From Octopus vulgaris (taxonomy: Eukaryota), in assembly GCA_951406725.2 (NCBI GenBank), contig OX597817.1, positions 95,542,001-95,606,000 of the forward strand: a DNA stretch of 64,000 nucleotides, given 5' to 3'. Positions 23,933 to 35,620 of the stretch are shown in pieces. Position numbers and translations under genes: made by a program. The notes below the pieces were generated by a model, which was not told the DNA's origin, did no database searches, and worked only from the letters and a program-made list of their open reading frames with translations. The stretch's first letter is position 1. Each line of letters starts with the position of its first letter.

Positions 23933-24872
23933 TACTAAGTAATTAAGGGTTTAGCAACGATTTGCCTCACCACACACCGAATTTAGAAATAGCAGTCAAA
24001 GAGTTATAGCTATTCTTTCTACTAAAAGGGAAATCTCAGTAAAACCACAGCACTTGAAAGGCAAACACAGACAGGCAAGAGAGAAAGAAATGACGGCAAT
24101 CTATCATACAATTTTAAGTCACCTACGGACGTACGTTTCGAAATTAAGTTTTAGGAAAGCATAAGAATTAGATAATTATGTCTTACCCAACTTCTTTTCT
24201 CATCAGCGTAGGACACTACAATTATGAATAATTGTATATTAAATTTCGAGGTACTAGAAGGCATCATCTCAACTCAGTATCAGAGCGAGCTAAAGCCGTT
24301 ACCAGTATCACCAAATTCAAAGTGTGAATGAAAGTTTGTGTCACCAACCTCTTCCCACCAGCGTGTAGCCAAGACAATATGTTGTGGTCATCTACTGGGA
24401 TGAAATATGGTTATCAGTAATAATATAGGGTGAAATTAATTAATTTGGAATAATCATTAATTTCACCAAGTAGATTTCGGCATGTAAAAGCCTCATTCGA
24501 GGAAAGTTTAAGTAATACTAAGTAATTAAGGGTTTAGCAACGATTTGCCTCACCACACACCGAATTTAGAAATAGCAGTCAAAGAGTTATAGCTATTCTT
24601 TCTACTAAAAGGGAGATCTCAGTAAAACCACAGCACTTGAAAGGCAAACACAGACAGGCAAGAGAGGAAGAAATGACGGCAATCTATCATACAATTTTAA
24701 GTCACCTACGGACGTACGTTTCGAAATTAAGTTTTAGGAAAGCATAAGAATTAGATAATTATGTCTTACCCAACTTCTTTAGCTCGCTCTGATACTGAGT
24801 TGAGATGATGCCTTCTAGTACCTCGAAATTTAATATACAATTATTCATAATTGTAGTGTCCTACGCTGATGA
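23933..24872 (-). mobile_element. Non-coding HHR-bearing partial-tandem element (583-nt unit) with a 5' inversion, adjacent to (TA)n
   Basis: 23933-24197 is repeated at 24516-24780 (2 differences seen); 24777-24872 is the reverse complement of ~24200-24295. Confidence 0.85.
24122..24212 (-). ncRNA. Type I hammerhead ribozyme with long helix II
   Basis: CCTACG-CTGATGA-GAAA..(long stem)..TTTC-GAAA-C-GTAC-GTC-CGTAGG. Perfect 6-bp helix I, intact core, palindromic ACGTACGT helix III, GUC site at 24128/24127. Confidence 0.88.
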
Positions 24873-25070
24873 TTTCTGAAGTCACGTTCAGGTTGGAGGA
24901 CCAGCCTGGGTTCTTCTACAAAAACGGTCTCCAGAGCTGCATCAAACGATGGGAGAAATGCGTAACTCTGGGTGGTTCCTATGTAGAAAAAGACTAATAA
25001 CTGTGCCAAGTTTCGTTGCTCTACTGCTATGGGAAGTGGGTCAAGGGCATTACTTATTGAACGCCCCTCG
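24873..25070 (+). mobile_element. Mariner transposon 3' end
   Basis: FFYKNGLQSCIKRWEKCVTLGGSYVEKD* followed by the terminus TTGAACGCCCCTCG|TA. Confidence 0.85.
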
Positions 25071-25739
25071 TAATTTTGAAATATCTATAAAACCGTCAAA
25101 AGCTTGTTTATTTTTAGGCTTTTTGATTTATTATTAGTGTTGCTTAATATGCTTTGCTAAAATTGCTGTTTCTTTTCAGATATCATCAGAAAAAAGTTAT
25201 TAAAATTCATTAAAATGACAGATCTATTGGCAGACTTCTGGAAGATAGACTTTTCTTCTTAAAGTATTTAAGAATTTACATAACTGTTTTAGAGTTTCAA
25301 CAACAAATAATGCTAATAGCAACATTATTCAGTATCGTTGTCATTCAAAAATATAGACCTAAATATTATAAATCTATATCACAATTTTGCATTATGCTAC
25401 CAAAGGGCTTGCATCCTAATTTACAAATTACAGATACTTACAAATTGCAAATATTTTTAGCTTTAGCTCTCTTCGATGATATAATTACAAAGAAAATATT
25501 GTTCACCAATGAATGATGGAAGTACATACTGCTAAATGTTTGTCAGCTAATCCAAACTCATTGCTTGGTGGGAGTAAAATAAATATAGATAATCCTGCAG
25601 CAATGGGAAGATCTCAAAGCACACTGTATGGTTGTAAACTGCTTTAAATCGAATGTTTCGAGAAGAAAACGCTTAAATATACTAACTTAACTTATCACAA
25701 TGATAATTTTAACGAGGTTCAGTGTCATCAGCCAGACCT

Positions 25740-26662
25740 GCTCGAAATACGTGTTGAGTGACGAAATTGTTCTGCACGCACTAGTCCAGTGCGACTAGTG
25801 GGATTATGTCAAATACCTGCTCTCGTGTATAAGACAGATCCGACTATCAGCTGAGTCCATTGTAAAGATCATCTCTCCGCCTTCCTTTGAGTGGAAGAAC
25901 ACGCAATGTTTTTCTGCCTGGTGGTTTTAACGAAAGGTGACTTAGTGGTACTGGACAAGAACATCAGTGAAAGCCATACATTCAGACTAGGTGTGGGGCG
26001 GTTAGAGGATTTCCTAATAAACTGCTGTTCTTTAGTGCTAGTGAGGGATTTGAAAGCTGTCTTCGATGCACGTTGGATGCTGTGGTGTTAACTGATAGGA
26101 GGTGCGGATGCAAAAGCTCCGCAAACCTGGCCAGACGTTTCCAACTGTTTGACTGGTACCGGCGGTTTCATCATATTTCTACTAAAAGTAGGATTATATT
26201 GAAATGAAGATTTTGGTCTAGGTGTTTGCTAAGAAATTGGTGCTTGATCTCGGTGGTCTAGTCGGTGATGGGCAAATATGTGTCTTCTTGACAGTCTCCA
26301 CCTCATGTAAAATATCATAGACAGTGTAGGTAAGGAGCTTGGCATGGGTGGGGACATTATTTATCGAAAGCTTTCGATAGAGTCGACCATAAATTCTTGT
26401 CGACTGTCCTAACAGCAAGTGGTTTTGTCCCCGTTTTCAGGGATTGGATCACCACTGTGTACAAAGGCATCATCTCGGTCCGGAAACTAAATGGCTACCT
26501 ACTAGGACTATTCAGTATCATGGGCTCGGTCCCTCAATGTTGTTCCTTGTCGTCCCTTTTGTATGTACTGACTCTAGATCCACTACTGCTGAAAATAGAG
26601 TTTCATGAGAATCTTGTACGAACTAGGATACATTGGCACATGCAGGCGACGTCACCCTCATA
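25740..26662 (+). mobile_element. Degenerate, rearranged Tx1-like LINE fragments
   Basis: VLHALVQC C-terminal motif (~25770) precedes RT relics FRDWI..SLLYVLTLDPLL (ORF 26397-26663). Confidence 0.6.
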
Positions 26663-33020: not shown

Positions 33021-33128
33021 CATAATACATACATACATACATACATACATACATGTCTCTCTCTCTCTGTATATATATATAGTGGTTGTCTACTTATGAA
33101 GAGTCTGACCACCTTTTGTTCCTACACA

Positions 33129-34045
33129 TCATGGCGTCTGATGTGGCCTTTTTAAACCAGACAATGCATTGAAAAGACACCCATATAGATTGCATATCCA
33201 ATTTGGATCATGAAGAGCTGCAGTTAAGTCATGACCTTTTTGTATCTTAAAATGTATTTTGAGGCCTCCGTTAGAATTGCAGACCTTATGGCATACATGA
33301 CATTGAAAGGTGTGCACAGATATATAGCCAGAATAGTTGGTGGAGGTTCGTTTTTCATGGGTCATCAAATGAGATTTGAGCCCAGCAAAAGTAAGGTATG
33401 GTCTTTCAAAAACTGTGCACACAAAAAGGTTACTGAGATCCACTTGATCGTAACATTCTTCTTTAAATCTCTCAGGTGTTATCCTGGCCGCCTCAAACGC
33501 TTTCACTCCACTCCACGCATTTGTTCGCCATCCAGCTCGATCCGAAGCAAGGGTTTCTATGGCCTTTGGATCCATTCCAAGTGAATTCATGGTAGTCCTT
33601 ATGCCATCCTTAAAGCTCTTTTTTAGGTTTACACCGATTGCGTTTCCTCTCTACAACCTCGCCATGAAACAGCTGTCTGGGTATGCGTTTATCCGCCATT
33701 CGAACAATATAGCCATACCACCTCATTTGATTTTTCAGAATCACTGATTTAATTGAAGTGATGCCTGCAGACGCAAAGACATCTGTGTCTGGAGTAAAAA
33801 ATTCCAATTTTATGTTTAAAATTCGGCGAAGGCAGTTTTGGTGGATTCGTTCTAAAAGTTTGAAATGTCTTTCATAACACGTCCGTGTTTCAGAAGAATA
33901 CAACAGAGATGGTAAGACAAACGATTTGTAAAGAGCCAATTATGTGTTGTTATTTATATGTCGTTGGTGCCAAACGTGTGACTCCAAACTACCAAATGCT
34001 TGTGCTGCCCTTTGAATTCGCAGATGTATTTCTATCCAGGAATAG
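33129..34045 (-). mobile_element. RTE (BovB-like) LINE C-terminal fragment with three decayed C2H2 fingers
   Basis: VLPSLLYSSET..CLRRIL..RWYGYIVRM..RIPRQL..DRAGWR followed by three Cx2C-x-GLKxH-type repeats. Confidence 0.85.
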
Positions 34046-34930
34046 AAGATAACTACTAAATACCTGATAAACAAGAGAGGCACAGAAGCCATCAAACTTC
34101 CACATTGTGATAGAAAATGTCATTTATGCTATACCAGTGTGGAGGATATCACCAACATCATCAGCAGCTTCCCTAAATGTCTATAAGGTTCTACCTACAT
34201 CAATACTTGCAAAGCCTATTTACATTACTATTCTCTCGAAGCGTTACCTTGACGGATACATGGAAAGCATGTCGGAACCGAAGTGTATACACCTTTAAAA
34301 ACAAGGAATATTGGTGAAATATTCCAATAAAAATAACACTCCGGTGAAAACACAAAGGACTTGATATTGTTCATTGGAGCAGGGGACAAAAGTTATGCAC
34401 TCTTGTAGAGGTTAGCTGCCCAGCGGATATATAATCAAAAGTTCAAGAAAAAGAAAATATTTATGTTGAACTAAAGCGGAACTTAAAGCTCTTGTACCCT
34501 GGCTCTAAATTTTCTTTTGTACCTGTCATCATTGGTTCATCAAACTATGTAAGTAGGGTTTTGCATAAAAATCTAGAATTCTTAGGATTTTTTATGATAC
34601 AGCAAAAGAAACTGACGCGCTCCTTCCAAATCAAATTTTCACTTCCATTTTAAACTGTTTTCTTACCTAATATTCACTCCGTCCACGTGAAACTGTTGAT
34701 GTGAATACATATATGCAAGTATAATTTTTTATTTTGCTAATTGTTTATGACACTATATTCAGTGATATACGGAAATAACAGTTCGCGATATACAAGAGTA
34801 TATAATAGGGATATACGGAATAATAGGAATATAATAGGGATATACGGAATTAACAGTTCGCGATATACAAGAGTATATATATATATATATATATATATAT
34901 ATATATATATATATATATATATATATATAT

Positions 34931-35620
34931 ATCAACAATAAAGGAACGGCCATAATAGGCCATTCACCCACTAGAAATAACAGCCAAAGCTTCAACCGCA
35001 AATAAAAGTTAATTCAGTAAACCAGGAGAAAATTTAAAAAACATTTACCCTGTAATTTCTTATACGATATACCGTTTCATCTGCTGATTAATGGTAAACT
35101 AACCTGATTAAATTAAATCAAGCTAATCTTCCACAGGCCCTCAGATTCTTCAGTAAGAAATAGCCCAAGACGGAACAGATATTTTCACGAGGCATTTCCG
35201 ACGTTGCCAAGTTTATATCTGACCTAAAATTTTCAAATCGTCGCACTCGCGCCAAATTTATCGGCAGCAAATAAATATAAGCCGTCGATTCCATTACGGA
35301 ATTAACCAGAAAATTCATAATTAATCAATATAGGGTGGCAAAAAAAATTTTGTAGAATTCTTTTGCCACCAGCGGCCTAGTAGGAAAAAATTAAAATAGT
35401 CATAGACCATTTTTAAGTTCAACATCAACAATAAAGGAACGGCCATAATAGGCCATTCACCCACTAGAAATAACAGCCAAAGCTTCAACCGCAAATAAAA
35501 GTTAATTCAGTAAACCAGGAGAAAATTTAAAAAACATTTACCCTGTAATTTCTTATACGATATACCGTTTCATCTGCTGATTAATGGTAAACTAACCTGA
35601 TTAAATTAAATCAAGCTAAT
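34931..35620 (-). mobile_element. Non-coding HHR-bearing partial-tandem element (493-nt unit) embedded in (TA)n
   Basis: 34931-35127 is repeated at 35424-35620 with no differences seen; (TA)n on both sides; no credible ORF. Confidence 0.88.
35055..35161 (-). ncRNA. Type I hammerhead ribozyme with long helix II
   Basis: ATTTCTTA-CTGAAGA-ATCTG..CAGAT-GAAA-CGGTATATCG-TA-TAAGAAAT. 8-bp helix I, intact core, near-palindromic helix III, GUA site at 35063/35062. Confidence 0.9.

Follow-up and report, generated by a model that had tools for sequence, protein, structure and literature searches.

Protein-less hammerhead repeat families inserted at (TA)n in the Octopus vulgaris genome and a predicted RNA module at their unit junctions

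Two non-coding repeats, here named elements A and B, lie in a 64,000-nt stretch of Octopus vulgaris DNA (assembly GCA_951406725.2, contig OX597817.1, positions 95,542,001 to 95,606,000; hereafter the window, numbered from its first letter), and each carries a type I hammerhead ribozyme motif. The locus raises the question of how such repeats are copied and inserted. The copying of retrozymes in animals and the origin of the tails and inversions of Penelope-like elements (PLEs) are both called open in the published texts, as far as these were available to us. The initial annotation, which was made from the letters alone, described A and B as one structured, non-autonomous RNA family mobilised by Penelope-type reverse transcriptases (RTs). 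In this study, the window and the genome (2.8 Gb, 227 contigs) were searched, and the insertions, arrays and predicted RNA folds of both elements were analysed. A and B are probably young, dispersed, protein-less hammerhead families of non-autonomous PLEs, that is, retrozymes without long terminal repeats (non-LTR retrozymes), put into (TA)n by a borrowed PLE RT-endonuclease. Elements of this kind have been described, according to the available parts of PMC7229834 and 10.64898/2026.07.22.740005. New here are the two fixed end positions and the predicted junction-spanning module next to them.

Insertion anatomy and families in the genome

A total of 95 complete insertions (54 A-type and 41 B-type) were typed. 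Among their outward RNA-3' ends, 85 lie at unit positions 1-14, 57 at the start of a tail (positions 472-491 in A and 378-392 in B) and 4 elsewhere. The two fixed positions are ~100 nt apart and far from the predicted ribozyme cut, and (TA)3 or more adjoins 133/142 fixed ends against a background of 5%, which confirms that the flanks are enriched in (TA)n. Insertions with two outward 3' ends combine one position-1 end with one tail end in 47 of 51 cases and two ends of the same type in none (0/51). Inverted copies occur in 22/54 A-type and 29/41 B-type insertions. In 49 inverted copies, the position-1 arm is the longer one in 26 and the tailed arm in 23, the arms stop within 10 nt of each other in 5 (2 expected), and the junctions overlap by 1-8 nt in 31. 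Truncation points are scattered, and only 1/76 (A) and 0/70 (B) fall within 5 nt of the ribozyme cut, values at the unit boundary partly reflecting pieces too short for alignment. When the flanks were checked for target-site duplications, which in retrozymes exceed 4 bp when present, they consisted of (TA)n. Partial tandems with an inverted, 5'-truncated copy are typical of PLEs, and tails, inversions and a (TA)n bias are named as PLE hallmarks in the available text of Craig et al. (10.1101/2021.04.23.441226). On anatomy, the class assignment of A and B is firm; the initial annotation is supported as to PLE-type insertion anatomy and (TA)n association, but not as to the RTs it named in the window.

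The window copies show the same organisation (Table 1). Self-comparison recovered the 583-nt and 493-nt units proposed initially, both in partial tandem: the unit of A (23933-24515) is followed by a second copy of 265 nt (24516-24780; 99% identity) and that of B (34931-35423) by one of 197 nt (35424-35620; 100% identity). Both elements had been said to end at (TA)n, which applies to both sides of B and to the left side of A, whereas the right end of A is a 96-nt inversion with unrelated sequence beyond it. The absence of credible open reading frames (ORFs) was also upheld, the longest ATG ORF being 38 aa in A and 66 aa in B. Both elements are non-coding, lack LTRs and have a GC content below 50%, primer-binding sites and polypurine tracts not having been searched for as such; like retrozymes, they consist of units of a few hundred bases in arrays. 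As for a tRNA-like head of the type seen in tRNA-derived short interspersed nuclear elements, ARAGORN reported 0 genes in the window and no Rfam match reached the gathering score. The window-wide repeat search was dominated by microsatellites. A and B are indeed not alignable overall, with short blocks only and best local matches at E 0.036 and 0.098; their 3' terminal 75-80 nt nevertheless exceed shuffled sequences (score 29, 0/300 shuffles in either direction).

Further copies are abundant in the genome, where 2531 (A) and 858 (B) candidate places were located, 40 and 39 of them being scored. Among the matches listed, the top full-length copies are 96-100% (A) and 97-100% (B) identical and lie on many chromosomes. 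Tight pattern searches of the genome returned 3849 exact matches for the hairpin pattern (control, 40) and 3472 for a second pattern (control, 0). Relatives of A have units of 584-602 nt with 69-92% identity, and those of B have units of 482-493 nt. A motif taken from a published octopus element gave 388 matches in the genome, which suggests an octopod host. A and B are each a young, dispersed family. The single family proposed initially is structured, non-coding, non-autonomous and multi-copy as stated, but it comprises two families within a wider group. Family D, another member, also has a hammerhead-like motif. It was rejected as a truncated autonomous element, since it forms a closed unit of its own (roughly 550-600 nt).

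B arrays contain up to 9 units head to tail and occur on both arms of single insertions. The 97 full units of 20 B arrays are closer to one another inside an array (1.49 substitutions) than across arrays (2.87; 0/2000 permutations). Twelve variants are fixed in an array and 68 are singletons; 5 of the 12 occur in one array only, and 2 of these 5 are present on both arms. This pattern fits a circular or multimeric template from one source and not a linear cleaved monomer, without proving a pure monomer circle. In 4/4 runs, contigs connect the end of the unit with its start; as the large DNA-like run is among the four, and contigs do not distinguish circles from tandem DNA, this is uninformative on circles. 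One small run gave a single cyclic contig of 523 nt.

Ribozymes and the predicted junction-spanning module

A strict type I descriptor scan of the window returned three matches, namely, A and B on the minus strand and a weak plus-strand one at 16689. The scan corroborated the minus-strand type I hammerheads with a long helix II and a palindromic helix III that had been noted in both elements: at helix II, 60 nt (A) and 68 nt (B) separate the core strands, helix III is palindromic in both elements, perfectly so in A and with a single G-U in B, and helix I has 6-8 bp. The predicted cuts fall at unit positions 195 (A) and 132 (B). Each tandem unit has a type I hammerhead, as in retrozymes. Each window copy holds one complete ribozyme because its partial second unit stops ahead of the catalytic core, and neither copy could therefore be expected to release a monomer alone. 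Rfam hammerhead models gave no match for A or B at the gathering score or at E values up to 10, and the E-value matches obtained were hairpin or microsatellite artefacts. Hammerheads with a long helix II escape Rfam, and elements of that sort may be under-counted. According to the available part of PMC4209133, minimal PLE hammerheads likewise have a palindromic helix III suiting dimers and an enlarged helix II; the helix II region here spans 60-68 nt against 6-8 bp, and helix I has 6-8 bp against 2-5.

In relatives of B, the CUGANGA core varies solely at its free N, where all four bases occur, and the cut triplet is GUA or GUC. Hammerhead helices are paired in 98.7% (A group) and 99.3% (B group) of cells, and two-sided changes keep 4/13 pairs in the A group (the palindrome centre included) and 2/19 in the B group; the rows compared are related sequences, and shuffle counts are therefore not probabilities. 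Only 2 substitutions near the cut were observed among 146 pieces from the 20 B arrays. At minimum energy, the isolated B ribozyme adopts helices I and II in part. The compensatory changes and the core conservation suggest selection on the ribozyme.

Among the collinear blocks that A and B had been said to share, the 18-nt block and the GGTG..CACC hairpin hold in relatives, whereas TCAGTAAA(A)CCA and TTTAAGT do not. The former of these two has changed in the sister family C (70% identical) as well as in B subfamilies, and the latter in family C and in 2/5 B rows covering that site. In at least seven families, the distance of the 18-nt block from the position-1 end, measured inwards, is 33-57 nt. 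In the predicted RNA, this block is unpaired and is followed by a stem that pairs with the tail of the next unit. Two hairpins and the AU-rich first end between them lie within the closing stem, and after it come a long hairpin and the second end, which is likewise AU-rich. The A-group consensus fold has 31 pairs, 6 of them with two-sided changes, and 92.7% of its cells are paired; the B-group fold has 38 pairs, 3 with two-sided changes. Single-sequence folds have the same layout in D (z -3.3) and in J (z -4.2), the latter spotted by eye later, and whole unit monomers fold at z -6.0 and -4.5. The predicted multi-stem module would span the unit junction beside both fixed ends and appears to recur in four non-alignable groups (A, B, D and J). 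More tentatively, a retrozyme superfamily of at least four non-alignable groups and thousands of units may share this junction-only module, which would fix two priming sites ~100 nt apart, a proposal that we hold to be possible rather than probable. Judged from titles and the openings of abstracts, the literature search returned no description of such a module.

Table 1. Positions in the window of elements A and B and of their parts.
Feature	Position	Strand	Remarks
Element A	23933..24872	-	RNA sense = minus strand; 1.45 direct 583-nt units + 96-nt inverted piece; 36% GC
(TA)n target of A	23886..23934		At fixed 3' end (unit position 1)
Inverted copy of 24200-24295	24777..24872	+	Right end of A, stopping at ribozyme core
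Hammerhead of A, type I	24122..24212	-	Core 24206-24200; predicted cut between 24128 and 24127
Shared 18-nt block in A	23984..24001	-	52 nt inside fixed end; predicted single-stranded in RNA
Tail segment of A (unit 473-583)	24405..24515	-	Other copies have their second fixed end at its far end; long hairpin 24429-24467
Predicted junction-spanning RNA module of A	24413..24586	-	Motif; closing stem (24556-24564/24476-24484) around two inner hairpins; long hairpin
Element B	34931..35620	-	1.40 direct 493-nt units; (TA)n at both sides; 35% GC
(TA)n at fixed 3' end of B	34874..34932		
(TA)n at truncated 5' end of B	35619..35657		
Hammerhead of B, type I	35055..35161	-	Core 35153-35147; predicted cut between 35063 and 35062
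Shared 18-nt block in B	34972..34989	-	42 nt inside fixed end
Tail segment of B (unit 387-493)	35317..35423	-	Long hairpin 35334-35370
Predicted junction-spanning RNA module of B	35322..35488	-	Approximate bounds

Candidate partners and neighbouring repeats

The proposal that RTs such as those in the window mobilise the units was not sustained, since the module is absent from every PLE 3' end examined and the long RT-type ORFs of the window resemble non-LTR elements. We take the ORFs at 4302-6029 and 26623-29732 to be of the restriction-like-endonuclease non-LTR type; several remnants to which we would give the same label stand next to (TAA)n repeats at 4302-6029 and 26623-31375. The copies are probably also not the ends of long RT-encoding Penelope elements, as an ORF screen upstream of the motif revealed no RT ORF joined to a unit in the 95 typed insertions, read in part.

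The survey of PLEs was partial: 150 of 6136 GIY-YIG candidates were scored, 100 of 2062 RT-motif matches were listed and ~20 regions were read. Clade names rest on sequence motifs, in part those given in Craig et al. In the families covered by this survey, no homology of A or B to a pseudo-LTR or to the 3' end of an autonomous PLE was detected, and the module was not seen, mostly by eye, at the 3' ends of ~12 Neptune-like families and of one Hydra-type, one Poseidon-type and one Naiad family. One surveyed PLE 3' end was folded (z +1.1), and four scored against A and B were not above shuffles. Hydra-type (41 matches) and Poseidon-type (128 matches) 3' ends were set aside as partners, being without the module. 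A Naiad partner, considered for a by-eye likeness to a published 3' end, was also rejected. Shuffled sequences resemble B as well often enough (35 and 88 of 300) that the likeness does not stand out, the 30 genomic 3' ends examined are old (~80-89% alike) and without a tail, and the 11 RT-motif copies examined look broken.

The best guess at the partner is a Neptune-like element, as it is the Neptune-like elements here that are young, intact, tailed and flanked by (TA)n. Intact young Neptune-like ORFs have 775-847 aa, and one has 1392 aa from stop to stop. An intact element at locus L474 shows the one-tail asymmetry of A and B, with a tail of ~45 nt on one arm only. Neptune-like families share a short GC(A/G)TTTTC-type word, and family L463 has TTTGACT near its end and TTTCACCCT at the tail end, which is a lead only.

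Other PLE sequences were recorded alongside. A tandem Neptune-like element (L447-L449, G000:C1:27.84 Mb) has a spacing of 4271 bp and an intact 775-aa ORF in the copy examined. The window contains a degraded Neptune-like PLE at 42720-44270 (RT fragment, zinc-finger linker and endonuclease remnant), on whose 3' side the module was not seen, and a Hydra-type remnant at 54266-54782 with ~80-86% protein identity to L326. In an abundant repeat (L371, L384 and L386), a tRNA-like head is joined to the Poseidon-type element's 3' end with its hammerhead.

Different (TA)n-targeting elements often adjoin and have TA tracts in common (loci L065, L067, L069, L077, L081 and L474). Near A, a third (TA)n-flanked element at 23452-23700 has inverted arms, a tail of ~75 nt and a small hammerhead-like motif similar to those published for the Hydra clade; a further copy lies at L478 1945-2100. 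Two short stretches adjoin (TA)n, one at 34757-34873, which is internally repetitive and contains a word similar to the shared motif, and one at 23715-23885. Right of A, a short frame at 24873-24997 resembles the end of a mariner-type transposase. The window also includes a 176-nt inverted duplication (53221-53633) and two arrays of a 184-nt tandem unit (9584-9994 and 58834-59559). Many U2 small nuclear RNA (snRNA) genes with their upstream region occur, dispersed and in tandem, within a ~1.75-kb unit (L222-L241, e.g. G000:C23:43305109-43324347), which we assume to be a Helitron-like non-autonomous element. Newt satellite 2 is said to have an snRNA-type promoter. Such a promoter was rejected for A and B, as 30 U2 upstream regions share an ATCAGT word near -60 and none of the A/B blocks.

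Proposed copying mechanism, alternatives and implications

Twin priming is known from work on L1, and the two-end pattern of A and B likely reflects twin priming on circular or multimeric RNA. Tandem arrays would be transcribed from the minus strand, and the hammerheads are predicted to cut once per unit, probably as dimers via the palindromic helix III. A host ligase would then close the monomers into circles, and circular monomers are plausible. The ends lie at two fixed sites in the DNA, where the folded junction module may position the enzyme. Both nicked TA strands would prime cDNA, one at unit position 1 and the other at the tail end. Synthesis of the two cDNAs would continue along a template that is either circular or an uncleaved multimer, each would end at a point unrelated to the other, and microhomology would join them, which would yield head-to-head arms with exactly one tailed end. 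Copies of the window type would arise when the second arm is short or absent.

Several observations weigh against this interpretation. Fifteen variants are common to some but not all units of an array, and the arrays are therefore not pure copies of one monomer; a mixed multimer template or later reshuffling is possible. The isolated A ribozyme lacks the hammerhead fold at minimum energy (z -1.1), several older D-group copies fold otherwise than the module at minimum energy, the covarying sequences are related and the structures were derived from the same sequences. The 18-nt motif is not confined to the neighbourhood of (TA)n, which is missing within 250 nt of 26/46 masked-locus matches. The tail of 85-135 nt is ~3x as long as the 30-40 nt described for PLEs, no autonomous partner emerged from the partial PLE survey, and the insertion sample mixes best-hit and position-ordered loci. 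Finally, the stop points of the two arms lie within 50 nt of each other in 17/49 inverted copies against ~9 expected.

This last, mild excess is what fold-back would give. In that account, the elements belong to the same class, but priming at the target happens once and the inversions come from the product folding back to prime itself, possibly with an antisense template, as for rotifer Penelope; self-priming has been proposed in PMC3846280, as far as its available text goes, and 5/49 junctions are near-perfect palindromes. The stop points are mostly unrelated, however, either arm can be much longer (3450 vs 506 nt; 410 vs 3214 nt), variants at L065 are not mirrored over the junction and the conserved polarity of the ribozyme agrees with that of the fixed ends, all of which make fold-back unlikely. 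We give somewhat less credence to the idea that the units are pseudo-LTRs of an unsampled autonomous PLE and the copies its 5'-truncated products, later amplified locally into arrays. PLEs are usually 5'-truncated, according to the accessible literature, and the survey was partial; against this, the head-to-tail units run into themselves, up to nine times and in both arms of one insertion, the loci screened upstream of the motif showed no RT ORF that belongs to the units, and family D closes into a unit in the same way. Spread of satellite or minisatellite units at the DNA level (recombination or rolling-circle replication), in which the ribozyme would be a passenger, is very improbable: unequal exchange or conversion could produce the within-array homogeneity and the partly shared variants, but fixed polar tailed ends, variable 5' truncation, inverted arms and (TA)n targeting are marks of target-primed retrotransposition, and the arrays are short and dispersed. 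Least credible of all is that the likeness of A and B is chance or a common genomic word with no shared signal, for although the motif is also present in unrelated repeats and TCAGTAAA(A)CCA and TTTAAGT fail in relatives, its distance from the fixed end is kept across families, the closing stem directly follows it in the consensus folds and no shuffle matched the end similarity.

The preferred reading, insertion of protein-less hammerhead units by a borrowed PLE enzyme, places A and B close to the non-LTR retrozymes of PMC7229834 and 10.64898/2026.07.22.740005, in whose available text these are non-coding tandem units with one type I hammerhead each, a GC content below 50%, high self-pairing, mostly short arrays and PLEs in the same genome. 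The units here (493-602 nt) exceed the 170-400 nt and 150-450 nt given for the former source and lie inside the 51-972 nt of the latter. A and B further differ in their very long helix II, strict (TA)n targeting, tailed inverted arms and a predicted fold common to non-alignable families; no homologous pseudo-LTR appeared in the partial survey, whereas 21/57 Xenopus families have PLE matches. In the same Xenopus work, only 1/9 retrozyme dimers was cleaved. The available part of a 2020 review (PMC7761336) reports no conserved motif pointing to a partner in animal retrozyme repeats. The endonuclease PLEs Neptune, Hydra and Naiad (PMC8557442; PMC3846280, each in part) share with A and B the partial tandems, the inverted 5'-truncated copy, the one-end tail and the (TA)n bias, and Neptune and Hydra, not Naiads, have a hammerhead near the 3' end; A and B differ in having no ORF, a longer tail (about 100-110 nt against 30-40 nt) and as many as 9 units in one insertion. 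According to the available text of Craig et al. (2021), the 3' ends of non-autonomous Chlamys elements such as MRC1 are similar to those of their autonomous partners; no such partner emerged here from the partial survey. The literature search returned no description of cephalopod retrozymes, though Dfam, Repbase or paper supplements may hold entries.

If the proposed superfamily is real, its module would represent the first signal in cis by which retrozymes are mobilised, and the one-sided tail and head-to-head inversions of PLEs would be explained as twin priming on circular RNA. If no PLE pseudo-LTR carries the module, the enzyme would be recruited by shape and not by descent. The octopus families are young, numerous and regular in anatomy, and they thereby pinpoint the priming positions, suggest a fold for recognition and provide multi-unit arms suited to phasing.

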